Counted from the first letter of the stretch, positions 5,201 through 30,862 are shown. The stretch: 32,000 nucleotides of DNA from Edaphobacter aggregans (GCF_003945235.1 NZ_RSDW01000001.1:5310001-5342000), one strand, 5' to 3'. The notes: generated by a model from the letters alone, not told the origin. Numbers and translations are program-made.

Positions 5201-5840
5201 TCAGACCACTCTTCGCGCAGCTCTGAAGCGAAGCTCTTCGGAATCGAGTTCTCCGGTCTCCATGTCTCGAAAGAAGACTCTGTAGAACCCCGGAGTGACC
5301 AACTCGACTCCCAACTCTTCGAAGCGAAATACCTCGCTGATGAAGATTCTCTTCTTGTGCCAGCTGATATCGCCGCTATTGTTGACCCGTTGCAGTTGGA
5401 GACCCTTCGGATACCTAAACTCCGGCAACTTGCTCGGCAGTCGTAATGCGCTCGGAATGTACAGACTTGCGGGAACCTGGTTGTTCAGGCCCTCATGCGG
5501 GCGCTCGTGGTTAAACACGTACCGGAAGTTATCAAATCGGCTCTGCTGCGCTCGAAGGGATGCCGCAGGTGGTTTGGTCGTGTCCTCCTTCAAAGTGCGA
5601 TGCATTCGCTCATGACGGCCGTTTTGTTGCGGTCTACCTGCTTGAATGCGCTCGTGCACGATCCCGAGCTTCATCCATCCGAGCGAGAGCTTCGACAGAC
5701 CTAAGAGCCCGGTGCCCGCAAACGGTGCTCCGTTGTCTGTTCTGATCCGCGCTGGCATCCCGTACTCCCGCATCGCTGCTTCGCATACCGCCCGAACCTG
5801 GCTTAGATCCATGCGCGAGACGATCTGGCAACGAATCAGT
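5201..5840 (-). mobile_element. IS481-family (rve/DDE integrase core) transposase, N-terminally truncated remnant
   Basis: The translation contains ARIRTDNGAPF, RPQQNGRHERMHRTLK and FNHERPHEGL, which are the second Asp and the Glu region of the DDE core. The frame stays open upstream of the tracked Met (..LIRCQIVSR-MDLSQ..) but hits TAA at about 5841-5843. The N-terminal HTH and first catalytic Asp region are therefore missing. Confidence 0.75.
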
Positions 5841-9409: not shown

Positions 9410-9607
9410 TCATGTTGAAATTTGAGCTCGGTCAAAGGCTCGCTGTGACACTGTCGAGGGATTGCAGACGTGATTCTTGTCGTGCTTCTCAAGTTCGATT
9501 TCGGTTCTTGCATTCGCAATCGTGCGCAAGCATTCCAAACAAATGGAGTCGAAGGAACCATCGCTATTTCGTCGGTGCGGAAAAAAAGGAGGAAGAGTGG
9601 GGATCAT
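9410..9607 (-). CDS. Small CxxC-x19-HxC protein, copy A (65 aa)
   Basis: The internal Met of tracked ORF 9410-9673 gives MIPTLPPFFPHRRNSDGSFDSICLECLRTIANARTEIELEKHDKNHVCNPSTVSQRAFDRAQIST. It is collinear and roughly 65-70% identical with the ORF at 22053-22250, whose N-terminus is fixed by upstream stops. Both have AAGAGAGA about 8-10 nt upstream of the ATG. Confidence 0.7.
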   Translation of the reverse strand: MIPTLPPFFPHRRNSDGSFDSICLECLRTIANARTEIELEKHDKNHVCNPSTVSQRAFDRAQIST

Positions 9608-9963
9608 CGCATCTGTCTCTCTTTCTGGGGAGAACCTCCAACATACGGCAGCTGTACCCAGAAAGATGTTCAATTTAGCTCACGTCAACTTTGTCTTCTC
9701 CGGCAACCTAGCGCCCGGACCCTTCCGGTCCCGGCGCAGCTTTGATGGAAGATGCGTTTGGGGGGCGGTGTTTGTTATCCCTGCCGTCGTTATCTCCATG
9801 CTCTTCACCGTTTCCGCCACATAACCTTAGAGCTGCCAAGCTACAAATCGGGCGGCGGATTGTCCGCCTCGAAGCACACAAGATAATATTTCGTCGATCT
9901 GCAAACCTGCCATATGATTTATGAGATTTACATGATGAGCCCCTGTACGGAAAGAGGCCACTG

Positions 9964-10632
9964 ATGAACGCGCAGAACAATACATTATTTGATCCCGCAG
10001 CGTTTCTAGCGAACGCGGGACTAGGCAGAAGGATTGTCCAAGTCAAGGCAAAAGGAGTCTTTTTTTCACAGGGGAATCCAGCCGATTGCGTTTTCTACCT
10101 TCAGACAGGCCGGGCGAAGCTCACAGTCGTCTCACGAGCCGGAAAAGAAGCCACAATCGCCCTTCTCTCTGCTGGCGAGTTCATTGGAGAAGAGTCGATT
10201 GCTGGGGCGGCTGGACTGAGGATGGCGACGGCGACGGCGATCACCGCATGTACTGCCCTCAAGATAGAGCGAGTGGAGATGATCCGCGTTATGCACGAGG
10301 AGCACGCCTTCTCCGACCTGTTCTTGAAGTTTCTGCTGGCTCGCAGCATGCGAACCCAGGCCGATCTGGTTGATCAGCTTTTTAATTCCAGCGAAAAGCG
10401 TCTGGCGAGAATTCTCCTGTTGATGGCCGAGTTTGGCCAGTCGGGAAATCCGGAAACGCTAATCCCTCAAATCACGCAGGAAACTCTGGCAGATATGATC
10501 GGTACTACGCGATCTCGTGTCAGTTTCTTTATGAATCGTTTTCGCAAACTAGGATTTATTGAATACAACGGCCGCATCAAGGTCCATAAGTCGCTGCTCA
10601 ACGTTGTCCTGCACGATCAGTCCTTCGAATAA
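9964..10632 (+). CDS. Crp/Fnr-family transcriptional regulator (cNMP-binding domain plus C-terminal HTH), paralog 1
   Basis: 222 aa. The beta-roll region reads FFSQGNPADCVFYLQTGRAKLTVVSRAGKEATIALLSAGEFIGEES. The HTH reads ITQETLADMIGTTRSRVSFFMNRFRKLGFI. TAA stop. Confidence 0.9.
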   Translation: MNAQNNTLFDPAAFLANAGLGRRIVQVKAKGVFFSQGNPADCVFYLQTGRAKLTVVSRAGKEATIALLSAGEFIGEESIAGAAGLRMATATAITACTALKIERVEMIRVMHEEHAFSDLFLKFLLARSMRTQADLVDQLFNSSEKRLARILLLMAEFGQSGNPETLIPQITQETLADMIGTTRSRVSFFMNRFRKLGFIEYNGRIKVHKSLLNVVLHDQSFE

Positions 10633-10859: not shown

Positions 10860-11519
10860 TCACTCGGAGAAGTTGGGAGCATTCAGAGGCGTCGGCATCG
10901 CCAGACCCGACTTCTGCCGGGACGCCTGCGGAAAGATCGGATTCATCGGCTGGACAATTGCGTAATGGACCAAACTGGAGCAATGAACGCAATCTGTTTC
11001 GTTGATAAGGAGGATGTCTTTGCCGAGAACCTGCGGGAACGCTCTCAGGCACTCTGGGCAGGTAACTGTAACGTACTCCTCCCCGGAAGAGTCATGTCCG
11101 TTCTTCGGGATCCAGATGGGCGCCAATGTGCCGGGATGTTGGAAAAACTGCCATTCCATGTGGGCCATATCATGCATTATCTGCAATAAAGAACTCAGGT
11201 TTGTTCCTTTTTCATAGAAGGCATCAGCGACAACTCCGGGTGGTACGCCATCACCTGAAAGCGCTCCGCTCATAGCGATCGTACGGATTGCGGGAAACCG
11301 GCGACGAACCACAGAGAGAAACTCAAAGCCGGACATACCTGGCATGTTGAGATCGGAGAGAATGATGTTGGGGATTTCATTCCGGATCTCAGCGAGTGCA
11401 GAAAACCCGTCTTCCGCTGACCGCACGTTATACCCAGACTCAGTAAAGATTTGTGATAGCAACATCAAGAGCGATGCATCATCGTCTACGACAAGAAGCT
11501 TCACTTTCGCATCGGGCAT
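10860..11519 (-). CDS. Response regulator: receiver domain fused to a C-terminal CxxC-x19-CxHC (zinc-ribbon-like) domain
   Basis: 219 aa. The receiver domain shows LLVVDDD, ILSDLNMPGMSG, IAMSG and FYEKG. The C-terminal ~95 aa carry ..GEEYVTVTCPECLRAFPQVLGKDILLINETDCVHCSSLVHY.. with no HTH or enzymatic motif. Confidence 0.85.
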   Translation of the reverse strand: MPDAKVKLLVVDDDASLLMLLSQIFTESGYNVRSAEDGFSALAEIRNEIPNIILSDLNMPGMSGFEFLSVVRRRFPAIRTIAMSGALSGDGVPPGVVADAFYEKGTNLSSLLQIMHDMAHMEWQFFQHPGTLAPIWIPKNGHDSSGEEYVTVTCPECLRAFPQVLGKDILLINETDCVHCSSLVHYAIVQPMNPIFPQASRQKSGLAMPTPLNAPNFSE

Positions 11520-11574
11520 CTTGGCCCCTCCCTAGCGCATCATAAGACAGGTTTGGGAAGAGTATTTCATTCCG

Positions 11575-12363
11575 CTAATTTTCCTTCTGTTCAATTTTGC
11601 TCACTCTGGCCGTGCCTCGCTTAGCTTTCCTTGATTCATTTTGGGGAGTGTCCAAGATCGAAGCACTTATTGCATTGTGTTCAGGCAATTGATCGTGCAG
11701 AACCACATTAAGAAGCGACTTGTGAACCTGAATGCGGCCGTTATATTCGATAAAGCCGAGCTTCCGAAAGCGATTCATGAAGAAGCTCACGCGCGATCTG
11801 GTAGTTCCAATCATTTCTGCCAGTGTTTCCTGCGTGATCTTCGGAATCAATGTTTCCGGTGCTCCTGGCTTGCCAAATTCCGCCATCAACAGGAGAATTC
11901 TTGCCAAACGCTTTTCGCTTGAGTTGAAAAGCTGATCCACAAGATCAGCCTGAGTCCGCATATTGCGAGCCAGTAGAAACTTCACAAACAAATCAGAAAA
12001 TGCATGTTCCTCATGCATGACGCGAATCATCTCCGCCCGCTCTATCTTTAGCGCGGTACAGGCGGTAATTGCGGTAGCCGTTGCCAGTCGAAGCCCGACC
12101 ACTCCGGCAATCGACTCTTCACCGACGAAGTCGCCCGCGTTGAGCAGGGTGATCGTAGCCTCTTTACCATTCTTCGAAATGACTGTGAGTTTTGCGCGAC
12201 CCTTCTGAAGATAAAACACGGAATCAGCTTGATTTCCCTGTGAAAAGAAATCTCGCTTTGCTTTCAATCGGATGATCCTTCGTCCTAATCCCGCGCTCGC
12301 GAGAAAAGCGGCGGCGTCAAACTTTCCGTTTTCTAACTCAGGCATCAGGACAGCCCTTTCCAT
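11575..12363 (-). CDS. Crp/Fnr-family transcriptional regulator, paralog 2 (with a ~40-aa basic C-terminal tail)
   Basis: 262 aa. By hand count there are ~29 mismatches over ~208 aligned residues against paralog 1. The true start may be the second ATG at 12345 (MPELENGKFDAAAFL), by comparison with paralog 1 (..NTLFDPAAFL). TAG stop. Confidence 0.9.
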   Translation of the reverse strand: MERAVLMPELENGKFDAAAFLASAGLGRRIIRLKAKRDFFSQGNQADSVFYLQKGRAKLTVISKNGKEATITLLNAGDFVGEESIAGVVGLRLATATAITACTALKIERAEMIRVMHEEHAFSDLFVKFLLARNMRTQADLVDQLFNSSEKRLARILLLMAEFGKPGAPETLIPKITQETLAEMIGTTRSRVSFFMNRFRKLGFIEYNGRIQVHKSLLNVVLHDQLPEHNAISASILDTPQNESRKAKRGTARVSKIEQKEN

Positions 12364-12592: not shown

Positions 12593-13153
12593 CTTGTAAC
12601 CTCACTTCTAAGAGGAAACTGGACGGGCCTTTGTAACTGCTGTCCCGCTTCCTCACTACCAACAGCATAAAAGTGGCTCAGACAAATGTCTGGTCAAATT
12701 GGATCACTTTTTCGGCGCGCTCTACCCCCTATGACGCGAAGGGAGGGCTTTATCGAACTCTTGATGCCTTTGCATTGTGATGTCAAGTATGATGAGATGT
12801 GGCGAAGTCGCGGACTACGCCGTTAGAAGAGCTACGACCCACGTCGTGGCGTACTGCAGTTTCTTGCAGAGCTTTGGACGGGAGGCCGTGGATCTGCCGA
12901 CCTTACGCGCGGGTTGAGATGAAACCTAAGCGGTTTTGTTCGTTTTGGCGGCCGCGACACAGCTAGTTTACCGGCCCTCTTTGCTTTCTCCCTTCGCCGC
13001 GAACTCCTACCTCACCTTGAGTGCAATGGCGTCGGTATCGAACCTTGTAGGGTCGCGGCGGCATCGGAGAGGACGACGGCGGGACTGGTATGAGCCGAAA
13101 ATCGGGTGCTTTGGAGTCGGGCGGCCATAAAATCGGAGGCTGGAGTCATTCAG

Positions 13154-13718: not shown

Positions 13719-14378
13719 TTACACCGAGATGCTGATTGCGATTCCGACATTGGGATACCTGCGGTTGAACAGGTAATAGCCGTTGTCGGCGTAGGCGATG
13801 TAGACGTCATCGGTGTCGTACCAGTTATTCGCCCAGTATTCTGGCCATGGGTCAACCGGACTTAACCAATAGCCACCGTACTGGAAGCGCGGGTATCCGC
13901 CAACAACCAGGAAGGGAAGACCGTAGATGCGGAATCCATGCTCCGGCCCAAAGTATCCACGGAATCGGTCGTCGGGGATGCGGTAGCCGTGGTAGCCACC
14001 ACGTTGTTGCCAATTGCGGTGGTCTGACTGCCAGCTTTGTGCTCGATGTTGCTGCCAAGCGCTCTGCTGGACTCGCTGCTGTTCCTGAGTGCGCTCGGGT
14101 TGTTCATTGCCGCGCTGCTGCTGAGCATGCTGTTGCTGCCTGTTTTGGTCCTGCTGCTGCTGAACATGTTGTTGCTGTTTGTTCTGGTTCTGCTCCTGCT
14201 GTTCAGCGCGCTGTGGTTGCTGAGCATGCTGCTGTTCGGGCTTGGATTGTTCGTGCTTGCTCTGTTGCTGTTCGGGATGATCTTGCTTTTCGCCCTGCTG
14301 CCCCTGCTGTGCGTAGGCAGGGGCGATTCCGAGAAGGAAAGACAGAACGGCTGTACTGGCGATTCCAATTACTTTCAT
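13719..14378 (-). CDS. Secreted Gln/His/Glu-rich protein with a C-terminal Trp/Tyr/Gly-rich domain
   Basis: The signal peptide is MKVIGIASTAVLSFLLGIAPAYAQQ. It is followed by a ~110-aa QQ(H/E)-rich low-complexity segment, then ..GGYHGYRIPDDRFRGYFGPEHGFRIYGLPFLVVGGYPRFQYGGYWLSPVDPWPEYW..DDVYIAYADNGYYLFNRRYP.. Three overlapping ORFs in other frames are low-complexity artefacts. Confidence 0.8.
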   Translation of the reverse strand: MKVIGIASTAVLSFLLGIAPAYAQQGQQGEKQDHPEQQQSKHEQSKPEQQHAQQPQRAEQQEQNQNKQQQHVQQQQDQNRQQQHAQQQRGNEQPERTQEQQRVQQSAWQQHRAQSWQSDHRNWQQRGGYHGYRIPDDRFRGYFGPEHGFRIYGLPFLVVGGYPRFQYGGYWLSPVDPWPEYWANNWYDTDDVYIAYADNGYYLFNRRYPNVGIAISISV

Positions 14379-14417
14379 ATGGGCTGCCTCTATTACTGCT
14401 CGTTACTTACACTCGCT

Positions 14418-15938
14418 CTAGCGCAAGCTTCCTATCGTTGCATTGACTGGGCTGCCGATGGCTTCGCCGGATACGAGAAGTTCTACTCTCCGGTTCTGCT
14501 GCCGGCCGGAGGAGTTATCGTTGGAGGCCACAGGCAAAGTGTTGCCGAAACCCTTTGCGCTGACCGAATTTATCGCCACGCCTTGTTGCACTAGGTAATC
14601 ACGCACCGAACCGGCGCGGTTCTGAGACAGTTTTTGATTCATTTCATCGCTGCCGATATTGTCCGTGTAGCCGCCGACCTCGATGTTGAGTCCAGGATAG
14701 GCGAGCAGAATTCCAGCGACTTTCGCCAGCTTCTCCCTTGCACCTGGCTTCAATGAGTACTTCCCGGTGTCGAACAACACATCGGACATACTGACGATGA
14801 GCCCGCGTGCGCTGTCGCGAGTTTGAAGTATGGCATTCAACTGCTCAGACAATCGCATGCGCATGGCTGTCTTATCGTTTTCCGCTTGCTGTGCAGCTAG
14901 ACGAGATTGGTTGGCATCAGCCTGAGCCGCAGTGACCGCAGCTACTGATGCTGCTTGATTTGCGGCCATGTCGGATTGTGCCTTTGCCGCATCAGACTGA
15001 GCCTGCTCTTTCTGCCTAATCGCGTCATCAGCTTGCCCTTGCGACTTTGCCTGTGCATCCGCTGAAGCCTGGCGTTCGTCGGCTAAACGTTGCTCGTCCA
15101 TTTTCTTAACCGCAATTGCGCGCGCATCTTCGGCAGTCTGCACTGCGTCTCTGGAAGCAGCGATCAGGAGTTTTTTGGGGGAGTGCTTTTCCGTGGCATA
15201 ACCATCCGCACTGTTCATCAACTGAACGGCGTGCTGATAGCTGTCGCTGGCATACTCCTTGGCTCCCTCGGATTGCGCGATTCGTAGTGCATTCCGCGCC
15301 TCGAAGAATTCCAGTGGCAAATTAGCATTCAGAATCACCGGGTCGAACTTGTAGCCGGTGGGAATGTAGCTGCCCCGTTCCATGAGTTCATACTTCGCAT
15401 TAACCGCCTCGGCAGTTCCCTTGGTGTCATCGCGAACGACGTTCTCGAGCACTATTACATTGCTTGGCTGCCGAACAGCATAGTAAGGTTCCGCGGTAAC
15501 AATCAGGGCGAATGCCTGAAGGTCCGTGGTCACGTCCAGTTTGCTGCGCCGGTTCCCGCCTACCAGCACTTCACCCAGGTTCACCGCCCGGCCCTCGGGC
15601 GAAATAGCCCACAGGACGTAAGTGAGATATTCGTTGCCAAACGTTGTGGGCTTCTGCAGGTTGCCAAACTCCACCTCGATCTCGATGGAGCCACGCTTGC
15701 TTTCCACCTTAGCTTGGCCGTTCGCTGAAGGCATAAGGTCGGTGCCTGCGAAATCCAGCTTCGTAGCGCCGCTGCGATGCTGATAGTTGACCGCTTGGAC
15801 CGTGCGACTGATCACGTTCACGTGGTATACAGATGCCGGACTTGTGGATTGGCTGACAATGGTTGTTTGAGGGTTGGTTTGAGCAAATGCACTCAAACTG
15901 AGGGTGATTCCGACTGCTAACGAAAGCGTAGTCTTCAA
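14418..15938 (-). CDS. OmpA-family peptidoglycan-binding protein: N-terminal domain, Ala/Gln-rich coiled coil and OmpA C-terminal domain
   Basis: The tracked ORF extends to 16151, but the best start is TTG 15938 (AAGGAG 5 nt upstream), giving the signal peptide MKTTLSLAVGITLSLSAFAQ. The C-terminus reads ..VLFDTGKYSLKPGAREKL...GYTDNIGSDEMNQKLSQNRAGSVRDYL...NRRVELLVSG. Confidence 0.9.
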   Translation of the reverse strand: MKTTLSLAVGITLSLSAFAQTNPQTTIVSQSTSPASVYHVNVISRTVQAVNYQHRSGATKLDFAGTDLMPSANGQAKVESKRGSIEIEVEFGNLQKPTTFGNEYLTYVLWAISPEGRAVNLGEVLVGGNRRSKLDVTTDLQAFALIVTAEPYYAVRQPSNVIVLENVVRDDTKGTAEAVNAKYELMERGSYIPTGYKFDPVILNANLPLEFFEARNALRIAQSEGAKEYASDSYQHAVQLMNSADGYATEKHSPKKLLIAASRDAVQTAEDARAIAVKKMDEQRLADERQASADAQAKSQGQADDAIRQKEQAQSDAAKAQSDMAANQAASVAAVTAAQADANQSRLAAQQAENDKTAMRMRLSEQLNAILQTRDSARGLIVSMSDVLFDTGKYSLKPGAREKLAKVAGILLAYPGLNIEVGGYTDNIGSDEMNQKLSQNRAGSVRDYLVQQGVAINSVSAKGFGNTLPVASNDNSSGRQQNRRVELLVSGEAIGSPVNATIGSLR

Positions 15939-16009
15939 AGCATCTCCTTGAAGCTGATGTGTGCCGTGATGCGTTATATCGATCTTGACTGGGTTTCTCT
16001 CGTCACCCT

Positions 16010-16201
16010 TCACGTTCCGACGTGGATCCGGGAAAGAGAATGAAATAGCCCAAAAACATTCAGTAGCCACAAAACGACGGCAATGACTACGACGCCATTC
16101 AAAATTGACTTGATGGACTCCTGCATGGGAATGAAGCGGTTCACAAGCCATAGCAAGATTCCTACTACGATCAGCGTAATAACGACCTGGATGAGTGGCA
16201 T
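16010..16201 (-). CDS. Small two-TM membrane protein (pattern of the Thivi_2564 family)
   Basis: 63 aa: MPLIQVVITLIVVGILLWLVNRFIPMQESIKSILNGVVVIAVVLWLLNVFGLF... AAGGAG lies 8 nt upstream of the ATG. It is 71 nt upstream of the OmpA-like start, so probably co-transcribed. Confidence 0.7.
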   Translation of the reverse strand: MPLIQVVITLIVVGILLWLVNRFIPMQESIKSILNGVVVIAVVLWLLNVFGLFHSLSRIHVGT

Positions 16202-16284
16202 ATTATGTTCTCCTTTCAGCTTCCTAAAGCTGATCGAGATCCTGGGAGGAGCCCGATCAGCAGAGCCTGATTCGTTTCGTCTGC

Positions 16285-16998
16285 CTACTTCTTGTCCTGC
16301 CTAGCTTCGGCAATCGTCGCTGCGTGATTCGTTTCCGCAATCGCCTTCATAAAACCCAAGGTCGATTTCGGCGCGGGGACCTTGCCTGACAGGATGGCCT
16401 GGAAGGTCTGATCGCGGCCATAGATCGCCCGCGTGGAGTCGTTGTCTTGCTGAACTACGGCGCCATTCAATGTGATCCCTGCGAACGCACCGCGCGAACG
16501 TGAGTAGGTCAGGATTTCAGTGTTAAGTTTCCAGTCGGTTCCTGCGGACGCATGACGACCCACTGGACCTGCGGCAGCAGACGCATCGCCGCTGATCTGG
16601 AACTTGCTGGAAAGCAGATGTTGGAAACCCTGGTTGTTCATGACCAGCATGACCAAGTCGACGCCTTCCAAGCCGATCTGCAATCCCCAACTGCCTCCTC
16701 CGATGGAGACGAACGCAGGAGAACTCCAGCCCTCGGCCGTGCGGCATGTTGCGATGCCCCGGCCGTGCTCACCGCCGACGACGAAGCCGCCCTTTACCAA
16801 ATGCGGGACTACTACGATGCACTTTGCACCACCCACTACTTCTTCTGGAATTCCTTTGTCCGGGGCATTCATAATGGAATGGAGTACGTCCGAGGACATT
16901 TGCAGGCGCTCAATCGAGTCCTGCTGTCCTGTGGCAGCCCATAGGTTTCCGTTCGCCAGCGTAAATGCGCCGATCAATAGCATGGATGTCATCTTCAT
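16285..16998 (-). CDS. SYLF (YSC84-like / DUF500) lipid-binding domain protein, secreted
   Basis: The start is taken at ATG 16998 (AAGGA upstream), giving the signal peptide MKMTSMLLIGAFTLANGNLWAA. SYLF-type core: ..AKCIVVVPHLVKGGFVVGGEHGRGIATCR...GGGSWGLQIGLEGVDLVMLVMN.. Confidence 0.85.
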   Translation of the reverse strand: MKMTSMLLIGAFTLANGNLWAATGQQDSIERLQMSSDVLHSIMNAPDKGIPEEVVGGAKCIVVVPHLVKGGFVVGGEHGRGIATCRTAEGWSSPAFVSIGGGSWGLQIGLEGVDLVMLVMNNQGFQHLLSSKFQISGDASAAAGPVGRHASAGTDWKLNTEILTYSRSRGAFAGITLNGAVVQQDNDSTRAIYGRDQTFQAILSGKVPAPKSTLGFMKAIAETNHAATIAEARQDKK

Positions 16999-17022
16999 AG
17001 GTTTTCCTTGCAAGGCGGGGAG

Positions 17023-17066
17023 CTAAGAGGGACGGATGTCAGATGGGCTGACTTAGCTCAGAAACC
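17023..17066 (-). promoter_or_regulatory. Conserved upstream block shared with hsp20 (GGTTTCTGAGCTAAGTCAGCCCATCTGA-N8-CCTCTTAG)
   Basis: The reverse strand reads GGTTTCTGAGCTAAGTCAGCCCATCTGACATCCGTCCCTCTTAG and ends 24 nt before the SYLF ATG. It contains the same 18-mer CTAAGTCAGCCCATCTGA as 30804-30821, in the same orientation and at the same ~40-nt distance from the start codon. Confidence 0.5.
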
Positions 17067-17130
17067 ATGAGGGAGCCGATAACAAGGACTCTTCTCCAAA
17101 GTCATTGTTCCAAAGATGGGTGGCAATAAC

Positions 17131-17146
17131 TGAGCTATATAGCTCA
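17131..17146. promoter_or_regulatory. Perfect 16-bp palindrome TGAGCTATATAGCTCA (candidate dimeric TF site)
   Basis: A perfect palindrome read directly, located in the 288-bp gap between the YihY stop and the SYLF start. A second palindrome, TCTGTG-AAA-CACAGA, lies at 17153-17167. Confidence 0.35.
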
Positions 17147-17286
17147 CTAAGGTCTGTGAAACACAGAATTCTTTTCACGCTAACGAAACTGCTGCGACAC
17201 ACCACTAGTCGAAATCGAGCGCGCCAACAGGTATCGGAATGGCTGCGGCGTTATTGGTCGTGTCCGGTCCGAAGAAAAATATATGT

Positions 17287-18093
17287 TCAGGTGCTTTCCG
17301 CGTTCCAGGCCACGCCCAGAAAAACGGTCATCGTCGAGAACTCCATCCACACCATCAAACCGATCGCGGCGGCCAACCCACCGTAGACAGGACCATACTG
17401 CATCTTCTGAACGTAAATTCCAAACAATAGACTGACGCCCCACCATAGAATCGCAGCCGCAGTTGCTCCCGGCAGAACAGACCTCCAAGTCGTTGGGACC
17501 GGTCGCGCGACGCGATAAATCAGTGCCAGGACGAGCATTGTTAGGATCCCTCCTAAGGCCGGAAGCATCACGCTCCAGAAGCCTAGAATCAAAGGAGAGG
17601 GGCCGAATTCTCGATTTATCCATTGGCGCAATGGCTGGCCAAAGACACTCAGCCCGATAGCCAGGAGCCATGCCACAATGGACACGCAGAACAGAAGCAA
17701 GCCACGAAGCTGCCGACCGAGAAAAGAGTGTTTCTCTCGATCCCCATAAATGAGGTGGATGCCTTCCATAATGAGTTTCATCACCTGCGAACCGACGAGC
17801 AGCGTCCCGACCCAGCCGAAAAGCACCCATGCCCAGGGATTCACTTCCCGGCGCAAGAGGGAATCAGAAACGAGCTGCCAACTTCCCGGGGGTAGAATTC
17901 TCGAAAGCCGGCCAATAAGCTCCCCACCGCTCCTCCCTCTTAGAAGGTTGCTCATGAGGCCGAGCACAACCAGCAGACTCGAGAAAAAAGCCAGGAACAT
18001 ATTGAAAGCCACGGCCTGCGACACCATGCCGCATTGTGGAATGACTCTTGCCAGTGCTCGGAACAATTTCTTCGCAAGAGAGGTTAGCGTCAT
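17287..18093 (-). CDS. YihY/BrkB-family inner-membrane protein
   Basis: 268 aa with about 6 hydrophobic helices. The pattern is typical of YihY: ..SQAVAFNMFLAFFSSLLVVLG...YRVARPVPTTWRSVLPGATAAAILWWGVSLLFGIYV...YGGLAAAIGLMVWMEFS.. Confidence 0.85.
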   Translation of the reverse strand: MTLTSLAKKLFRALARVIPQCGMVSQAVAFNMFLAFFSSLLVVLGLMSNLLRGRSGGELIGRLSRILPPGSWQLVSDSLLRREVNPWAWVLFGWVGTLLVGSQVMKLIMEGIHLIYGDREKHSFLGRQLRGLLLFCVSIVAWLLAIGLSVFGQPLRQWINREFGPSPLILGFWSVMLPALGGILTMLVLALIYRVARPVPTTWRSVLPGATAAAILWWGVSLLFGIYVQKMQYGPVYGGLAAAIGLMVWMEFSTMTVFLGVAWNAEST

Positions 18094-18316
18094 GGCGCAA
18101 AATTATATCGGGTTCGGCGAACATTCCCGATGCCTTCTCTATGCGCATGTCAGCTTCTAGCTGCTCAATTTGATAGGGCAAGTTCTCAGCGGACAAGGCC
18201 TGAACTGCCGTCCCTAATCTATAGTGTTGGTAGCTCTCCCCTGTACTGCGGTCGGATCGCGGACGCGTCCCCGAACCGTCCCGGGCAAGACCGCCTCTAC
18301 GAAGGGGTCCATTTAG

Positions 18317-18686
18317 ATGACTGAGTTGAAAAAGACGACATTCGACGCAGCCGCCTTTCTGGCGAACGCTGGTGGGCCTTCGTCGCGTAGGAAACCATTT
18401 CAATGCCGCGCAGATCGGGCATTTTGAGGTGACCAAGTATCTCGGATTCTTTCTTGCCAGGGTGAAGATATATCGGTATCAGATTCAGCAGGGTGCACTC
18501 CCCTTGTGTCCGACCAAGCCGCGCCCCTTGATGTCTCCGCTGCTTGAGGCGGCTGCGAACATAGGCCCCAGGTTGCGTCAGCCGGCTAAGGAATCCCTCA
18601 ATTTCCTGGCCAGACTGAGCTGTTTAGCTCAGTCATTTTTCTGCGTCATTTGGAACAATTGGAAACGTATTCCAGTGTTTGCATAA
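18317..18686 (+). pseudogene. Third, decayed Crp/Fnr paralog (N-terminal part only, frameshifted)
   Basis: ATG 18317 opens MTELKKTTFDAAAFLANAG.., compared with MPELENGKFDAAAFLASAGLGRRI in paralog 2. After the G-run at 18374-18376 the similarity continues one frame over (GLRRVGN...YLGFFLARVKIYR..NIGPRLRQ versus GLGRRII...FYLQKGRAKLTV..VVGLRLAT). No HTH region is left. Confidence 0.4.
18616..18631. promoter_or_regulatory. Palindrome (C)TGAGCT-GTTT-AGCTCA(G), the same half-sites as 17131-17146
   Basis: 7-bp arms CTGAGCT/AGCTCAG span 18615-18632. The site lies about 55 nt upstream of the ATG at 18686. Confidence 0.35.
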
Positions 18687-19495
18687 TGACGACACGGTTG
18701 CCATTTCGTTCCCTTTTGTTGATCTCGCCGCTACTGTTGTGCATGGGGCTACGCCAGTCTGCAAATGCACAACAACGAGGCAAATTCGTTTCGTCTGCAA
18801 ATGCTCCGCTCACGACAGAGCAAGTCGTAGAAAACCTGGTTAAGAGGAATCTTGAGCGGGCCCAGGCGCTCCATGCCTATTTAGGGACTCGAATTTACCA
18901 GGTGGAATACCGCGGTTTTCCAAACGACCGCAGTGCGGAGATGGTCGTGGAGGTAAAGTACCAATCACCCGGAACGAAGGAATTCACAATTCGCTCTGCG
19001 ACTGGGTCTAAAGTGATTATCGACAAAGTATTCAAAAAGCTCCTGCAGGCTGAACAAGAGGCGCTGGCCATAGAGGCTCAAACTCGCTCGGTTTTGAACA
19101 ACGACAATTACAATTTCACGCTGCTTGAGCAACAAAACACGCCATCCGGTTTGATGTACGTGCTTACCGTAGAGCCCAAAATCAAGGACAAGTTTCTTTA
19201 CCAAGGTCGAATCTGGGTGGATGCAGCAGACTTTGCGGTGGTCCGATTAGAGGCAGAACCCGCAAAAAAACCCTCCTTCTGGACGAAGAATAGCGAAATC
19301 GAGCAGGCATACATTAAAGTGGGTGAGTTTTGGCTTCCTGTACGCAACCACAGCATCAGTGAGATCAGGCTTGGTGGAACCGCGGAATTAACAATCCGCT
19401 ACAGCAATTATCGAATCATGAGTAAAGAGCAGATCAGCAATTTGTCAACGGTGGAACCGGTTCGGTCGGTAGACACTACCCACGCGCAACGCTAA
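18686..19495 (+). CDS. LolA-like / outer-membrane lipoprotein-sorting-type periplasmic protein
   Basis: The start is taken at ATG 18686, giving the signal peptide MTTRLPFRSLLLISPLLLCMGLRQSANAQQ. The body (..YQGRIWVDAADFAVVRLEAEPAKKPSFWTKNSEIEQAYIKVGEFWLPVRNHSISEIRLGGTAELTIRYSNY) matches my recollection of LolA_like-fold hypothetical proteins. The family call comes from memory only. Confidence 0.6.
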   Translation: MTTRLPFRSLLLISPLLLCMGLRQSANAQQRGKFVSSANAPLTTEQVVENLVKRNLERAQALHAYLGTRIYQVEYRGFPNDRSAEMVVEVKYQSPGTKEFTIRSATGSKVIIDKVFKKLLQAEQEALAIEAQTRSVLNNDNYNFTLLEQQNTPSGLMYVLTVEPKIKDKFLYQGRIWVDAADFAVVRLEAEPAKKPSFWTKNSEIEQAYIKVGEFWLPVRNHSISEIRLGGTAELTIRYSNYRIMSKEQISNLSTVEPVRSVDTTHAQR

Positions 19496-19663
19496 TGATC
19501 ATTGATAACCTCGTTCGACTCGCGTATTAGTCGGCAATCGCGACATTGCACTCATCTTCTTCACTCCGTAACCAATGAGCAGCAGCCAGTCCGAGAAGAC
19601 CAAGGCCGAATACATTGAGCGTCAGCAGCTAAATGAACAGGCGTCGGGGCCACGGGTCAGAGG

Positions 19664-19699
19664 GCGATAAGAGGCGGATTAGTGGCCGCCTCTTATCGC
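19664..19699. terminator. 14-bp perfect hairpin between convergent genes
   Basis: GCGATAAGAGGCGG (19664-19677) pairs with CCGCCTCTTATCGC (19686-19699) around an 8-nt loop. It ends 9 nt from the DUF892 stop. There is no clear U-tract. Confidence 0.45.
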
Positions 19700-19707
19700 A
19701 AGTTGTT

Positions 19708-20304
19708 CTATCTTGCTGAACTATGTGCTACGAGATCAGAAGCAGCCTTCTTCTCATCTTCCCGACTCTTCTGGGCCGAGTATTTTTCTTTACCCGTTTG
19801 AGGCTTCTTGTCTTCTTCTTCGGGCTGATTTGCGGATTCCCGAAGGATTGGCTTCGCCGCGACGAGAATCTTCTCTGCCGCCTTCTGCTCCTCGTTCAGG
19901 TTCTTAGTGAGAAGGCCGGAAACATCTTTCAGGCCCAGCGTGTCCGCCATCGCGATTGCGGCCATATAGCCAGCAATCTCATAGTGTTCAGTCCTAAGGG
20001 CTGCTCCCACAATCCCTGAGTCGAATGATGCGCCCTCTTCGTCCTTCTCCAGAGCATCCGCGCCCTCTTCTATGACGCCTTCCATACCGTTACAGTGCTC
20101 ACCGGTAGGCTTCTCCTCAAGAATCTCGAAGACCTGTTTCAGGCGAAGGACCTGTTCCTTCGTCTCTTCAAGATGTGCTGTAAAGAGGGCCTTTAGCTGC
20201 GCATTCTTGGCGCCTTTGGCCAGCTTTGGAAGTGCTTTGACGAGCTGATTCTCCGCACTATACATGTCCCGGAGTTCATCGACTAGTACGTTAGTGAGTG
20301 CCAT
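19708..20304 (-). CDS. DUF892 (YciE/YciF-like) ferritin-like stress protein with an acidic/basic C-terminal tail
   Basis: 198 aa: MALTNVLVDELRDMYSAENQLVKALPKLAKGAKNAQLKALFTAHLEETKEQVLRLKQVFE...LRTEHYEIAGY.. This is the typical DUF892 four-helix pattern. Confidence 0.9.
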   Translation of the reverse strand: MALTNVLVDELRDMYSAENQLVKALPKLAKGAKNAQLKALFTAHLEETKEQVLRLKQVFEILEEKPTGEHCNGMEGVIEEGADALEKDEEGASFDSGIVGAALRTEHYEIAGYMAAIAMADTLGLKDVSGLLTKNLNEEQKAAEKILVAAKPILRESANQPEEEDKKPQTGKEKYSAQKSREDEKKAASDLVAHSSAR

Positions 20305-20830
20305 TTGAATCCTGCTTTCAATCGTTATGTTGGATGTAGACCGCTTAACGAAAGCTGAAGGCAGGTACGGTCAAAGCTAAAGCGATCTCGACCGGTTTCA
20401 TTAGAGTGAGATGCAGAATACTTCACCAGGCTCGCCCGCTCATGGCGATAAATAGCATCTCAACATAGAGAGGGCCATCATGAAAGCAGCAACCGCCGCC
20501 GGAATTCCTCATAGTACTCGGAATAATTGGTTTTGCCGTGGGGTGAATCAGCGTCATCCTTCAGTAGACGGATGTGGACGTAGGTCCCGTCCAACTGTCG
20601 CGCAAAGAGACGAATACTATGCCGATCTCACCGATCCTGAGCACCCTCTCGTTGATCGCCGAGTTGGCTTAGTCGTTGTTGGCGTCGGAATAAGTAATTT
20701 CTGGCATTCGGGCACACAGTAAGTCCGTCCATTTCCCTCCCAAGATCGTGATCCTTTAGATCGCGTCGTAGGTTTCCTGCAGAGAACTCCTCGACTTTTC
20801 CACCATCTGCCGTGAGTCAGGGAGGTTCTT

Positions 20831-21703
20831 ATGTATCACCACGTCAAGAAGCTTATGTATACCGTTACGATTGGAGAGCCCGACCCGAAGTTCGGGAAGA
20901 TGTTGCTTGAGCAGTTCGGCGGAGCTAACGGCGAACTGGCGGCCGCTATGCAGTACTCGATCCAGGGGTTTAACTGTGAAGATGCCGCACGGAAAGATTT
21001 GTTGATGGATATCGGAACTGAAGAACTCAGTCACCTGGAAGTCGTGGGCGCGTTGATTCGCATGCACCTCAAACCTATGAAAGATGAGCGAGAAGCAGCA
21101 GAGGCCGACCCTTTGGTAGCGATTGCAGGCGGCGGTGGCGTGGCCCTTTTTGATTCGATGGGAAATGCATGGACGGCAGACTACCTGAAGATTACTGGCG
21201 ATCTCGCTGTCGATCTGCGCAGCAATATCGCGGCGGAAGCTCGCGCGAAGATCGTGTATGAACGCCTTATTAGCTTCACAGAGGACCAGGGGTCTAAGCA
21301 GGCGCTTCAATTTCTGATGACGCGAGAAGTCACTCATATGCGCGCTTTCACTGCAGCTTTAGACAGCATGGAGAAGCCACAGTTCGCGCTAGGTATTATC
21401 CAACCCACGCCGGGTTTGGTGGACCAGTTCTTCAACGGGTCCACCGGGGAGAGTCAATACGGGGAATCCGATTTCAAAGGACCCTGGAATAGCGGCAATG
21501 GTCTTCACACCGTGCAATCGGAGATTAAAGAGGGCGAGGGCCTGGACGTCACCCCCTACGATCCAAAGCCGGGAACCGAAACGACCTCTCCTGTCGATTC
21601 GACTCCAGTGGGCGAGTGGACGAACGGCGTCGGCGAGAAGCAAAAGGCCCTCCACGAGGCGAAGGAAAGAGATGCGGCAAAATATGCGACTGTTGAAGTC
21701 TGA
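20831..21703 (+). CDS. Manganese (non-haem) catalase
   Basis: GGAGG lies 6 nt upstream of the ATG. The product shows ..FGGANGELAAAMQYSIQG..., EELSHLEVVGA, AAEARAKIVYERL and LMTREVTHMRAF, which are the di-Mn ligand motifs of the Mn-catalase family. Confidence 0.92.
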   Translation: MYHHVKKLMYTVTIGEPDPKFGKMLLEQFGGANGELAAAMQYSIQGFNCEDAARKDLLMDIGTEELSHLEVVGALIRMHLKPMKDEREAAEADPLVAIAGGGGVALFDSMGNAWTADYLKITGDLAVDLRSNIAAEARAKIVYERLISFTEDQGSKQALQFLMTREVTHMRAFTAALDSMEKPQFALGIIQPTPGLVDQFFNGSTGESQYGESDFKGPWNSGNGLHTVQSEIKEGEGLDVTPYDPKPGTETTSPVDSTPVGEWTNGVGEKQKALHEAKERDAAKYATVEV

Positions 21704-22052: not shown

Positions 22053-22250
22053 ATGGTTTTCACTCTTCCGCCCTTCTTCCCGCACAGACGAAATCGAGAC
22101 GGTTCGTTCGACTCCATTTGCCTGAAGTGCTTGATCACAATTGCTAACGCAAGAATTGAAGCCGATCTGGCAGCGCACGACATGGATCACGTCTGCAATC
22201 CTTCCATCTTGTCCCAACAGGCTTTTGATCGCGCTCGGACACCGCGCTAA
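22053..22250 (+). CDS. Small CxxC-x19-HxC protein, copy B (65 aa)
   Basis: MVFTLPPFFPHRRNRDGSFDSICLKCLITIANARIEADLAAHDMDHVCNPSILSQQAFDRARTPR. Upstream in-frame stops fix the start. It is a paralog of 9410-9607. The antisense ORF 22032-22310 is judged spurious. Confidence 0.7.
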   Translation: MVFTLPPFFPHRRNRDGSFDSICLKCLITIANARIEADLAAHDMDHVCNPSILSQQAFDRARTPR

Positions 22251-22293: not shown

Positions 22294-22467
22294 ATGATGG
22301 TTGAAATCAAATTTTCACACCGCTACAACCCTGATGGGATGTGGCAATCAATTTGCCCGGAATGTTATAGAACTGTGGCGGAAAGCCGCGAAGAGGCAGA
22401 CCTAAAGCGAGCCGAGAGCATCCATGTTTGCCTCTCACTCAATGGGCGCATGGTTCGGATCGATTAG
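22294..22467 (+). CDS. Small CxxC-x19-HxC protein, copy C (57 aa, below the ORF-track cutoff)
   Basis: Hand translation gives MMVEIKFSHRYNPDGMWQSICPECYRTVAESREEADLKRAESIHVCLSLNGRMVRID*. It has the same H-R-x-N-x-D-G...SIC-x-E-C...x19...HVC layout as copies A and B. It lies 43 nt downstream of copy B. Confidence 0.6.
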   Translation: MMVEIKFSHRYNPDGMWQSICPECYRTVAESREEADLKRAESIHVCLSLNGRMVRID

Positions 22468-23346: not shown

Positions 23347-23642
23347 TAATCCTCCTGAGTACCGTGTAGAGAACTGGACACCATTCATCGGGGCGCTTGC
23401 GCCAGTATTTGGCCGCTCCGATAGACTCAGGCAAAAGTGCCCTCCTCCCATTGAGGACAAGAGGGCGAATTAGTTTTCTGATGGGTAGTTTCCTGCCTGA
23501 ACAGATACTAACTTTTGTTGCTGCAGCAAAGCTGTTCCAAATTGCTCACTATGTGCATTTCGTAAGAACCTGTTCTTTTCCTAGTTAAGCTAAACAACAC
23601 TACTCATAAATTTGGATCCAAACCACTGAGGTTTACTTATGC

Positions 23643-25857: not shown

Positions 25858-26067
25858 ATGAGCCTTCCAAACCAATCGGACATAAAGAATCATCTCGTGC
25901 GTCGTCAGAGAAATAATCTGATAACCTTCGATGCTGCAAGTCACTCGAAGTACCTTGATCAGCAACGGCTTGAACAGAACAAAGCTTTTGAAACCGCTCT
26001 CCCAAGTGGAGATGATGACCGTACGCCACCAGCAGTTCTAATTGAAATTAGAAGGTCGAAGGCGTGA
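25858..26067 (+). CDS. Hypothetical 69-aa protein, first gene of a coupled pair
   Basis: GGAG lies 7 nt upstream of the ATG. The product is MSLPNQSDIKNHLVRRQRNNLITFDAASHSKYLDQQRLEQNK... Its TGA overlaps the next start (GTGA). Confidence 0.55.
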   Translation: MSLPNQSDIKNHLVRRQRNNLITFDAASHSKYLDQQRLEQNKAFETALPSGDDDRTPPAVLIEIRRSKA

Positions 26068-26426
26068 AACCGCATTCGATGTTTCTGCGCGAAGGAAGTG
26101 TTCTTCCGAGTGGATTCGATCTTAGCCAAGAGAAGTTCATTGAGAACTGGATGTCCATTCGGGACACCACAGCTTTTGCTCTTGATATAAAGGTTCGCGC
26201 GGCCGGCTGGCATTTCTTTTGGTTACAAGACGTGCTCAATAGCTCAGCGGCTAGCCGGAGCGAGGCCTCGGCTCGTACCCATGCGATCGCTCGATCTCTA
26301 AAAAAAATCAGAGAGCCGTTCAATGTTGCAGAACTCCAGTTGATAACGGTTAAACGCTATCTGGGCTTCTGGGTTGCGAACGTGATGCTTATCACCCGAC
26401 ACATCCAGATTGGCGCGACAATTTAG
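26064..26426 (+). CDS. Conserved hypothetical protein (GWHFFWL ... RYLGFWVANV ... RHIQ pattern)
   Basis: The GTG start overlaps the upstream stop (alternative start ATG 26079). The product resembles uncharacterised proteins I recall from Burkholderiales, Bradyrhizobium and Acidobacteria (GWHFMW..., FNAAEL..., YPGF.VA.V, R.IQ). Confidence 0.55.
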   Translation: MKPHSMFLREGSVLPSGFDLSQEKFIENWMSIRDTTAFALDIKVRAAGWHFFWLQDVLNSSAASRSEASARTHAIARSLKKIREPFNVAELQLITVKRYLGFWVANVMLITRHIQIGATI

Positions 26427-26563
26427 CGACCCGGCCTCTTCAATGTTCCGCTCCCGGCTGGATGCGGCGATCGTGACCTCGAGAATGACCCTATGCAAGC
26501 GCGGCGACGCTAATCGATTTGCTATGCAGTTGTGATGTTGAAGGCTCTGAGAAAGCAGGGAAT

Positions 26564-28942: not shown

Positions 28943-29967
28943 ACCCAACTATCGCCCTTCCGACGGCATTCGAGTCGTCGTCCCCTAAAGAGCGTCACCT
29001 GACAGTGTTCCCTGAGATTCCGTTGTTCACCCGTCATTCCAATAATCCGATTCTTACCCGACAAGACTGGCCCTATCCGATCAACAGCGTCTTCAATGCA
29101 GGTGCCACATTGTTACCCGATGGAGACACCTTGTTGCTCTGTCGTGTGGAAGATCGGCGAGGTCTCTCGCATCTTTGTGCCGCTCGATCGGCTAACGGGA
29201 TCGATGGCTGGCATATCGATTCCAGACCGACCCTCATGTCAAATCCAACTGAGTATCCCGAGGAGATATGGGGTATCGAAGACCCCCGTATAACCTATGT
29301 TCCTGAGCTGGAACAATACGCGATTGCCTATACCTCCTTCGCTAGAGGCGGTCCTGGCGTTTCCCTCGCGCTGACGAGAGATTTCAGAAGCTTTGAGCGA
29401 TATGGTGTGATCATGCCACCGGAGGATAAAGATGCAGCACTGTTGCCGCGTCGCATTGGAGGTTTCTGGGCACTGATCCACCGGCCCGTGACAACGCTTG
29501 GCGCCCACATGTGGATCTCTTACTCGCCAGATCTGCGGCATTGGGGAAGCCACAAAGTAATTCTCGAAGCGCGACGAGGAGGTTGGTGGGATGCGAACAA
29601 GATTGGTCTCTGTTCACCCCCGATTGAGACCTCCAGGGGATGGCTGGTGCTTTATCACGGCGTTAGACAGACAGCATCCGGAAGCATCTATCGTCTAGGC
29701 TTAGCTCTCTTCGATCTAGATAAACCGGAAATTTGTTTGCGGCGGGGAGATTCCTGGATGTTCGGCCCAGAAGCGCCTTACGAACGCAGCGGAGATGTCA
29801 ATGACGTTGTCTTTCCGTGCGGCCAAACACTCGCCGCGGACGGAGATACGATTCATCTCTATTACGGGGCAGCGGACTCGTGCATTGCAATGGCAACTGG
29901 AAGTATCCGTGCTCTTCTCTCTTGGCTGGATGCGAATTCTGAAGCAACAAATGCAGTGAACTCATAG
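28939..29967 (+). CDS. GH130-family (DUF377) beta-mannoside phosphorylase/glycosidase-like protein
   Basis: The TTG start overlaps the GT stop (TTGA). GH130 hallmarks are present: NPILT..., SVFNAGATL, GIEDPRITYV, EDKDAALLPRR, ANKIG, WLVLYHGV and HLYYGAADS. Confidence 0.9.
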   Translation: MNPTIALPTAFESSSPKERHLTVFPEIPLFTRHSNNPILTRQDWPYPINSVFNAGATLLPDGDTLLLCRVEDRRGLSHLCAARSANGIDGWHIDSRPTLMSNPTEYPEEIWGIEDPRITYVPELEQYAIAYTSFARGGPGVSLALTRDFRSFERYGVIMPPEDKDAALLPRRIGGFWALIHRPVTTLGAHMWISYSPDLRHWGSHKVILEARRGGWWDANKIGLCSPPIETSRGWLVLYHGVRQTASGSIYRLGLALFDLDKPEICLRRGDSWMFGPEAPYERSGDVNDVVFPCGQTLAADGDTIHLYYGAADSCIAMATGSIRALLSWLDANSEATNAVNS

Positions 29968-30001
29968 CCTGTGAAATCGGGCATGTGAGGAGGTTAATTA
30001 G

Positions 30002-30214
30002 ATGAACTCGATAGTCTTCAGATTGCCAGATCGATTCCCACAATTCTTGTGGCTTCGCAAAACGTGCTCTCTCTGCACATCAATAGAATTCGAAGCCGCA
30101 GAAGTGCAGCCACTCGATGCGCTCTTAAGCTTCTTTGCACTGAAACCAGTCCGGTGCCTTAATTGTTGGCGTCGCTATTACTGGTTTGTAAGAAAGGGCG
30201 AATCCTCGATATGA
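30002..30214 (+). CDS. Small zinc-ribbon protein (CxxC-x28-CxxC)
   Basis: GAGGAGG lies 7 nt upstream of the ATG, 35 nt after the GH130 stop. The product is MNSIVFRLPDRFPQFLWLRKTCSLCTSIEFEAAEVQPLDALLSFFALKPVRCLNCWRRYYWF.. Confidence 0.6.
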   Translation: MNSIVFRLPDRFPQFLWLRKTCSLCTSIEFEAAEVQPLDALLSFFALKPVRCLNCWRRYYWFVRKGESSI

Positions 30215-30272
30215 ACATTCCAGCACAGCGCAAATCTGCCTCAGGTTTCAGCGAATCCAAGGAAACACTTAT

Positions 30273-30644
30273 TTGAAAAATTCTGAATATTCTTTCGGTT
30301 CTACATCGAACGATCTGCTATTTAAGCTCGATCCAAAGCTGCCGCATTCTTATCTCAATTATCAGGTAATCGCGCAAAACAGAGAAGAAGTGCAGGATAT
30401 CCAGAACGCCCCATCCATCAGTATCAGCACATACCTGACCGACTCGGCACAGACGCAGCTTCTCACGACAATTAGCGTTTACAGTCAAAGAGGCGAAAGC
30501 ACTGATCAAATTCGATTACTCTACATGAACGCTGTTGCGTGTTCGGTATGGCACGATATGGGCAGGTCAGCCCTAATAATCGGTTCAGTACATCGTCCAC
30601 CGAAGACGACTTCGCTGACATTTGGAGTGCCATTTAGTGAATAG
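30273..30644 (+). CDS. Hypothetical protein (weak call, TTG start, AT-richer region)
   Basis: A 123-aa ORF with AAGGA 9 nt upstream of the TTG. I recognise no family. Confidence 0.3.
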   Translation: MKNSEYSFGSTSNDLLFKLDPKLPHSYLNYQVIAQNREEVQDIQNAPSISISTYLTDSAQTQLLTTISVYSQRGESTDQIRLLYMNAVACSVWHDMGRSALIIGSVHRPPKTTSLTFGVPFSE

Positions 30645-30792
30645 AAGGTGTTTTAGGTCGCATTACGCGGCCCCTCAGATGCATCTTCGACCTTGGCAGT
30701 AGCGACACCAATTAGGGCGCAACCGTATCTTGACAACAATAAGTGCACAAGCCTACGGTTAACACCGAGCGAGTCTCTTTCTTACTCTTTCA

Positions 30793-30836
30793 GGTTCACT
30801 GAACTAAGTCAGCCCATCTGAAGTTTTTCCTCTTAG
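30793..30836 (+). promoter_or_regulatory. Conserved upstream block shared with the SYLF gene (GGTTCACTGAACTAAGTCAGCCCATCTGA-N7-CCTCTTAG)
   Basis: The 18-mer CTAAGTCAGCCCATCTGA (30804-30821) is identical to the reverse strand of 17039-17056. The flanking GGTT..CTGA and downstream CCTCTTAG are also shared. The block ends 41 nt before the hsp20 ATG. It contains nested repeats CTGA-N6-TCAG-N5-CTGA and a CCCATCT box. Confidence 0.5.
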
Positions 30837-30855: not shown

Positions 30856-30862
30856 CTGCGTC

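Follow-up and report, generated by a model that had tools for sequence, protein, structure and literature searches.

Within a 32,000-nucleotide (nt) stretch of the Edaphobacter aggregans genome (GCF_003945235.1, NZ_RSDW01000001.1:5310001-5342000; hereafter the window), we analysed a gene at 10860..11519 on the minus strand that encodes a response regulator made of a receiver (REC) domain followed by a cysteine-rich tail predicted to be a zinc ribbon. By its sequence and its entry in the list of open reading frames (ORFs) this is a genuine gene of 219 amino acids (aa) plus a stop codon, and about 70 full-length homologs lie in the 78 genome loci whose context we compared; the exact window protein is absent from the contig index searched. 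A Crp/Fnr-family gene, here called crpB (11575..12363, minus), lies directly upstream, and a convergent paralog, crpA (9964..10632, plus), lies on the other side.

The tail of about 100 residues contains two cysteine knuckles; we counted their conservation over 128 aligned family members, which share 35-97% identity with the window protein. In the first knuckle, C154-P-E-C157 (TGCCCAGAGTGC, 11049..11060, minus), both cysteines are present in 128/128 sequences, P155 in 106 and E156 in 115; in the second, C177-V-H-C180 (TGCGTTCATTGC, 10980..10991, minus), C177 is present in 128 and C180 in 126. Conservation of four cysteines across 128 sequences is far beyond chance, and the knuckles are separated by 19 residues in 110 members. 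The original prediction had taken the string CPEC-x19-CVHC, which does stand in the sequence, as a four-ligand motif with a histidine in its second half, and had named conservation of these positions among relatives as one point on which this should be judged. All four cysteines hold and the histidine does not: position 179 is Tyr in 51 members, His in 43, Phe in 23 and Trp in 4. Because any of these four residues can stand there, we read position 179 as an aromatic, non-ligand site and the motif as CxxC-x19-CxxC.

AlphaFold2, given a 55-sequence alignment, returned a model with a mean predicted local distance difference test score (pLDDT) of 86.7 and a predicted template modelling score (pTM) of 0.70; a model from a shallow 13-sequence alignment (pLDDT 47.9) was discarded. 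The module at aa 133-190 (10950..11123, minus) comprises six predicted β strands (135-138, 140-142, 148-153, 160-164, 173-176 and 183-189), with pLDDT 90-94 over aa 141-190. A lead strand, APIW(136)I, and an NGHD loop are followed by two β-hairpins that carry one CxxC knuckle each: C154-C157 is flanked by strands 148-153 and 160-164 and C177-C180 by strands 173-176 and 183-189, which places both knuckles at hairpin turns. The spacer between the knuckles contains Pro/Gly and is predicted to form a β strand. W136 is conserved in 127 of the 128 members and R159, after the first knuckle, in 123; beyond R159, strong conservation extends to the non-ligand residues F161, P162, Q163 and Y186 and to the NGHD loop. 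The modelled strands, the conservation and the sub-threshold profile matches described below together suggest an all-β module of about 58 residues in a Cys4 zinc-ribbon arrangement, with metal binding predicted.

As the original prediction held, the tail carries no recognisable output motif and constitutes a domain family of its own. No Pfam or NCBIfam family matched it above threshold, even when it was scanned alone at E up to 10, and neither database placed a helix-turn-helix, winged-helix or LytTR output domain in the regulator or in 55 relatives. A sequence search of the PDB with the tail profile gave nothing significant, the best match being the RNF4 RING domain at E 0.28. Below threshold, the Pfam matches in relatives were to small zinc-ribbon families only: DUF7836 in 20 of the 55 (best E 6e-5), and DUF7560, DUF5817, Zn_ribbon_3/4/5/8, DZR, TFIIB (Zn_Ribbon_TF) and TackOD1. 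No curated zinc-ribbon family reached its Pfam gathering threshold, the members listed individually scoring 13-22 bits against cutoffs of 27-31. The module resembles these small families in its weak profile similarity and in having two CxxC knuckles some 15-20 residues apart at hairpin turns, but differs from them in the extra N-terminal strand APIWI with the NGHD loop and in being fused to one REC subtype in every full-length case inspected. Searches of the literature found no description of a REC-zinc-ribbon family. TackOD1 (PF18551) of Thaumarchaeota is one described precedent for a receiver fused to a cysteine-rich output; it has 11 conserved cysteines, arranged as five CXXC and one HXXC, and is presumably zinc-binding (Galperin et al. 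2018, PMC5847659). Both are receivers whose only output is a CXXC-rich domain, and 2 of 55 members of our family match TackOD1 weakly (E ~0.01). The regulator module nonetheless fails the defining features of TackOD1: it has four cysteines only, its matches fall far below the Pfam threshold, and phylum and gene context differ.

The receiver at aa 5-120 (11160..11507, minus) is supported by Pfam, AlphaFold2, column counts and Foldseek. Response_reg (PF00072) matches aa 9-86 at E 2.9e-18 (66.5 bits against a cutoff of 30.2), and the NCBIfam matches, spread over many regulator families, cover only part of the REC. The catalytic residues are kept in most of the 128 relatives (D12 in 110, with Glu in 13 more, D13 in 119, D56 in 121, S84 in 119 and K104 in 126), and all of them are present in the window protein, which bears out the earlier call of a response regulator with a phospho-acceptor receiver. 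When the whole model was compared with the PDB by Foldseek, only REC domains matched, with those of CheY, Spo0F and PhoP at the top. The modelled receiver departs from the complete (βα)5 fold in that helix α4 is missing. No helix is predicted between β4 (79-84) and β5 (100-103), a region modelled at pLDDT 86-89, and the remaining four helices are there. In place of α4 lies a Gly/Pro-rich connector, aa 85-99, with the consensus SGA[FY]SGDxVPxGVxAD, which follows a conserved A-M-S-G-A-[FY] and is 13 residues long in 115 of 128 members. The model therefore describes one unusual, α4-less receiver subtype.

Loss of α4 recalls the FATGUY receivers (Sma0114, SdrG, MrrA, CpdR and CckA-Rec), in which α4 is replaced by a linker and which serve general-stress signalling by way of protein contacts and not of DNA binding (PMC9981736). 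Like them, the regulator has a receiver with a phospho-acceptor pocket, a β4-β5 linker in the place of α4, and, after β4, a partly similar motif of Ser-Gly plus an aromatic residue. Set against the FATGUY motif (PFxFATGY/FxSGY), the [IV]-A-M-S-G-A-[FY] of the regulator family keeps the Ser-Gly, has the aromatic residue one position later and lacks the leading Phe. The regulator also differs in retaining an aromatic switch on β5 (F101/Y102) and in adding the C-terminal Cys4 module, so that it is not a single-domain protein; sister paralogs that consist of the receiver only do exist.

The two domains are joined by a variable linker, aa 121-132 (11124..11159, minus), of high column entropy and pLDDT 65-75. 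Beyond the ribbon, aa 191-219 (10863..10949, minus) form a predicted disordered extension (pLDDT 57-66) that is subfamily-specific and absent from many members, which stop right after the ribbon. The C-termini of the family are variable, with a subset carrying AFQRKPGxGxP; the semi-conserved pattern P-x-A-F-Q-R-K-P-G-x-G-x-P...[FYN], found at loci L003, L004, L006, L013, L014, L022, L044 and others, may be a short linear motif.

With the tail as query, a word-indexed search recovered 12 close clusters. An exhaustive HMMER search of its profile against 1.84 billion representatives gave 288 clusters at E ≤ 1e-3, 127 of them at E ≤ 1e-10, that is, about 290 clusters counted at 50% identity. In full-length clusters (~200-260 aa) the tail occupies residues ~125-210. 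Among 55 full-length representatives a receiver is present in 53 and another domain above threshold in none, and one variant of the family has the order REC-REC-tail. In a genomic scan that took one genome for each species, 136 loci were confirmed, almost all from Acidobacteriaceae, and the 78 kept for context analysis are almost all from Acidobacteriaceae/Terriglobales. The family is thus lineage-specific. Cultured carriers include Silvibacterium bohemicum S15 and Acidobacterium sp. S8, and the nearest locus, in an uncultured Acidobacteriaceae metagenome-assembled genome (MAG), has a tail 97% identical and the same gene order as the window.

No credible free-standing tail was found in these searches. 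Of the short matches examined, candidates at L021 and L027 are frameshift fragments with pieces of the receiver in neighbouring frames, and short "tail-only" ORFs at L009, L032 and L076 were rejected as truncated ORFs. Several genomes have two or more REC-zinc-ribbon paralogs, and tandem copies occur within L027 (3047-3637, 4042-4635 and 7817-8270) and L053 (7593-8198 and 8590-9144). One 211-aa protein, P0156, is a chimera of the N-terminal two-thirds of a Crp with regulator α5 and tail, and its reading frame shifts beyond CPEC; most likely it stems from a deletion or a misassembly and is no functional fusion. At L012 (OY970299.1) a typical crp-regulator pair stands on a chromosome of 3.8 Mb that carries the label 'uncultured Verrucomicrobiae'; the sample it comes from also yielded an Acidobacteriaceae MAG, and the pair's placement could reflect a taxonomic mislabel or horizontal transfer.

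The REC-only sister paralogs are 62-77% identical to the regulator in the receiver. Those singled out (P0212, P0245, P0270, P0280, P0291 and P0309, and those at L084 and L086) are proteins of 132-154 aa, 64-74% identical to its receiver, and end where the zinc ribbon would start. They lie on many independent contigs, in stress contexts similar to those of the regulator. They are real genes, since P0291 occurs in 106 indexed blocks of the assembly collection, in comparable stress settings and with the box of the regulator gene upstream. The paralog at L086 has, ~70-90 nt upstream, the same box that precedes the regulator gene.

That box is a conserved operator, GAGTGAGCAAAATTGAACAGAA (11585..11606, minus), a pseudo-palindrome TGAGC-N6-GAACA that scores 34.7 with our position weight matrix (PWM), the best score in the window. 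A repeat search had picked out a 17-mer that stands upstream of the regulator gene, of one mini-protein gene (mini-protein 1, below) and of a PEP-CTERM gene alike. In 58 of 77 loci the regulator ATG is preceded, at a distance of 82-92 nt, by the element (G/C)TGAGCAAAATTGAACAG. The general form is TGAGC-N6-GnnCA, and perfect TGAGC-N6-GCTCA and TGTTC-N6-GAACA versions occur at other genes. Half-sites are of the types TGAGC and TGTTC, and the regulator's site is a hybrid of both. Readings of the motif as a direct repeat or as a −35 of the extracytoplasmic function (ECF) type were dropped given the perfect palindromes (CTGAGC-N6-GCTCAG and TGTTC-N6-GAACA) and the promoter geometry.

An extended −10-like element, TGAAATACT (11561..11569, minus), follows the operator at a conserved offset. 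Its family consensus is TGnGATACT; counted from the 22-mer's first base, it starts at offset 37 in 28 sites, and 6 more sites have the hexamer there without the TG. From this element the transcription start would lie near 11554, and if the hexamer is the −10, the centre of the palindrome falls at −41.5. In the E. coli paradigm of Busby and Ebright, −41.5 is the canonical centre of class II CRP/FNR activator sites. The arrangement here shares with class II promoters the inverted repeat with a 6-bp spacer, the centre at −41.5, the overlap with the −35 and the extended −10, and differs from them in its half-sites, TGAGC/GCTCA and TGTTC/GAACA, which are neither the TGTGA of CRP nor the TTGAT of FNR. 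Because of this class II geometry a Crp paralog appears to act on the regulator gene, most probably the paralog encoded beside it. The operator shares bases with the last codons of crpB, and the crpB stop codon is closely followed by the −10; the regulator gene thus appears to have a Crp-type promoter of its own and not to depend simply on read-through from crpB. A Shine-Dalgarno sequence, GGGAGGGG (11525..11532, minus), precedes the regulator ATG with a 5-nt spacer.

The operator is not confined to this gene. The PWM finds 6 sites in the window against 0.25 in shuffles, and 214 in 1.07 Mb of loci, of which 59 lie before regulator genes and 25 before crp genes. The six window boxes, scored on the minus strand, are at 9664-9685, 11585-11606, 12688-12709, 17128-17149, 18613-18634 and 23530-23551; the genes downstream of them are mini-protein 1, the regulator, crpB (~330 nt away), Ysc84, orf18650/BrkB and the PEP-CTERM protein, and the boxes probably define a local regulon. 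An Rfam scan of the window gave no match.

CrpB has cNMP-binding and HTH_Crp_2 domains (Pfam), and CrpA is 86% identical to it by BLASTP; the two genes form an inverted repeat (479 nt, 79% complementary) that brackets the regulator gene. The helix-turn-helix recognition regions of the two proteins are identical, and CrpB has a 37-aa basic C-terminal extension. Judging from sequence and position, CrpB is the probable activator of the regulator promoter. In 43 of the 78 loci the gene immediately upstream, on the same strand, is CrpB-like (69-95% identical), and 63 loci have a Crp paralog of some kind within 8 kb. A histidine-kinase homolog was found within 8 kb in only 4 of the 78, in a search with a single query that other kinase families could escape; the regulator is an orphan with respect to kinases.

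Recurrent neighbours of the regulator include Ysc84, OmpA, the pair GT4 and GH130, HSP20 and a ~150-aa uncharacterised protein directly downstream. The last belongs to a family of ~120-175 aa without a Pfam match that stands directly downstream on the same strand in about 19 of the 78 loci (for example L052, 8323-8805); its paralogs in the window, at 26064-26426 and 18372-18686 (both plus), lie upstream of the GT4-GH130 pair and near BrkB. The window itself has a stress-type island at 13719-21703 and 26519-31363, with genes for a Gln-rich secreted protein, an OmpA-like protein, Ysc84, BrkB, DUF892, Mn catalase, GT4 with GH130, and HSP20. An ORF at 5201-5812 (minus) with an rve_3 integrase core domain (E 2.4e-15) is probably an insertion sequence or transposase remnant at the island edge. 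Related loci add phosphoketolase, acetate kinase, glucose-6-phosphate and 6-phosphogluconate dehydrogenases (G6PD/6PGD) and a cation ATPase beside the crp-regulator pair (L079). A comparable context is the low-oxygen-activated lxa locus of Burkholderia cenocepacia, with its neighbouring CRP-regulator pairs BCAM0287/0288 and BCAM1483/1484 (PMC3721108). There too a Crp/Anr-like gene adjoins a response regulator in a stress, persistence and fermentative island with a TGA-N6-TCA-type motif; the phylum is another one, and the analogy is one of genomic context only.

The interpretation that we hold with moderate confidence is that this is a lineage-specific orphan regulator, induced by Crp, in which an α4-less receiver and a Cys4 ribbon provide phosphorylation-gated protein binding. 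A Crp paralog would induce the regulator through its operator, within a regulon of the surrounding stress genes that includes one mini-protein gene, and a kinase encoded elsewhere would phosphorylate Asp56. Phosphorylation may then alter the remodelled α4-β5-α5 face and thereby change how the ribbon is exposed or oriented, and the ribbon would bind a protein partner; a Crp paralog, RNA polymerase or another component of the stress response are candidates. The result would be a second, phosphorylation-dependent input to a Crp-controlled stress or dormancy programme. That the ribbon would bind protein and not nucleic acid is suggested by the absence of a helix-turn-helix and by the acidity of the module, whose net charge is −1.8 ± 1.9 on average; it is suggested also by the sister paralogs that lack the ribbon, at least one of which keeps the box, and by the FATGUY-like receiver, a kind that acts by protein contacts.

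Several points weigh against this interpretation. The zinc-ribbon fold comes from a predicted model, for which the Foldseek search with the whole structure returned nothing besides receivers. The immediately adjacent crp is missing in 35 of the 78 loci, and therefore pairing with a particular Crp is not obligatory. Symmetry and position are what point to the Crp paralogs as putative binders of the box, and neither canonical CRP boxes (TGTGA-N6-TCACA) nor FixK/FNR-like boxes (TTGA-N6-TCAA) are enriched in the window. The transcription start, finally, is a predicted position.

A narrower version, which we put forward tentatively and consider rather unlikely as stated, is that the regulator acts by phosphorylation-gated cofactor docking on a Crp paralog or RNA polymerase at TGAGC-N6-GAACA promoters, with a Cys4 site that is possibly redox- or oxygen-responsive. 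Other explanations, namely a sensory cysteine site, a structural cap and a DNA-binding ribbon, rank lower than phosphorylation-gated protein binding. It is doubtful that the Cys4 site is itself a sensor, which might be a redox-labile Zn(Cys)4 switch or an Fe(Cys)4 centre of the rubredoxin type and would join oxidative or oxygen status with phosphorylation. Such a role would suit the oxidative and desiccation stress context of Mn catalase, DUF892, HSP20, OmpA and Ysc84, as well as the phosphoketolase, acetate kinase, G6PD and cation ATPase of related loci, which recall the lxa island; but the CPxC knuckles lack the trailing Gly of rubredoxins, and the sequence gives no sign that separates a sensory from a structural site. 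CPxC knuckles without that Gly are typical of structural zinc ribbons.

We give a similarly small chance to the view that the protein is essentially a single-domain receiver (a phosphotransfer intermediate, phosphate sink or protease adaptor, like MrrA, SdrG or CpdR) whose ribbon only caps or stabilises the α4-less face. The missing α4, the S-G-x-aromatic motif, which resembles that of FATGUY Rec-only proteins, and the closely related REC-only paralogs would all fit, and packing of the two domains against each other is suggested by a pTM of 0.70. Against it stands the conservation of R159, F161, P162, Q163, Y186 and the NGHD loop, which suggests a functional surface beyond stability.

Zinc ribbons are able to bind nucleic acids. 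A ribbon acting as an NrdR-type DNA/RNA-binding output, which would make the protein a transcription factor of an unconventional kind and perhaps the one that recognises the TGAGC-N6-GAACA box, strikes us as a little less likely still. The Arg right after the first knuckle is kept in nearly all members and a box before the regulator's own gene would permit autoregulation, yet the module is acidic on average and only ~58 residues long, the 5-N6-5 box at −41.5 is typical of the Crp/Fnr helix-turn-helix dimers that are encoded next door, and paralogs without the ribbon exist, at least one of them with the same box upstream.

The original prediction had further noted three mini-proteins in the window with a similar spacing, and had proposed a single domain family for them and the tail, which would stand by itself in the mini-proteins and be controlled by phosphorylation in the regulator. 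A six-frame scan of the window for CxxC-x19-HxC does find exactly three small ORFs, at 9410-9607 (minus; mini-protein 1), 22053-22250 (plus) and 22294-22467 (plus). They belong to a family of ~57-73 aa that numbers at least 32 clusters and has no Pfam entry, with conserved H11, C23, C26, H46 and C48 in the C2HC-like pattern HRxNxDGxxxSIC-x2-C-x19-H-x-C and a helix-like, amphipathic spacer free of Pro/Gly. The lead-in said to be common to tail and mini-proteins is out of register, with 14 residues from the Asn to the first Cys in the regulator against 9 in the mini-proteins. Although both have CxxC, a second ligand pair 19 residues on and the string C-x-E-C-L-R, and hhalign aligns 19 columns around the first knuckle only, common ancestry is very improbable and we rejected it: the hhalign probability is 6.4%, the ligand sets differ (Cys4 against H11/C23/C26/H46/C48), the Pro/Gly-containing β spacer of the regulator has no counterpart in the Pro/Gly-free spacer of the mini-proteins, and only 2-3 of the 78 loci have mini-proteins less than 8 kb from the regulator.

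Since the same box precedes one mini-protein gene, the link with the regulator is one of co-regulation, and the presence of both in the window is better explained by one regulon with a common upstream operator than by homology. Elsewhere, mini-proteins sit in tandem small-ORF clusters adjoining Crp paralogs (L080 and L082); those at L082 lie upstream of a PAS-HisKA histidine kinase. A variant of the box lies 54-75 nt upstream of mini-proteins.

Acidobacteriaceae count among the most abundant bacteria in soil, and their regulatory circuits are almost unexplored. The regulator is a lineage-specific variation on two-component signalling and not a new kind of system. It adds to response regulators an undescribed output module, outside Pfam and NCBIfam and with no sequence relative in the PDB, and the REC-only sister paralogs offer a natural comparison for what the ribbon adds. 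Cultured strains, Silvibacterium bohemicum S15 among them, would allow the circuit to be tested directly. Its conserved operator and promoter probably tie the regulator, multiple Crp paralogs and stress genes (for mini-proteins, Ysc84 and the PEP-CTERM protein) into one regulon. If the cofactor-docking proposal is true, a cyclic-nucleotide-type regulator and a two-component signal would meet in a feedback loop on one promoter complex, an undescribed form of transcription control without a DNA-binding domain, and this would be a master circuit of the stress and dormancy islands of Acidobacteriaceae.

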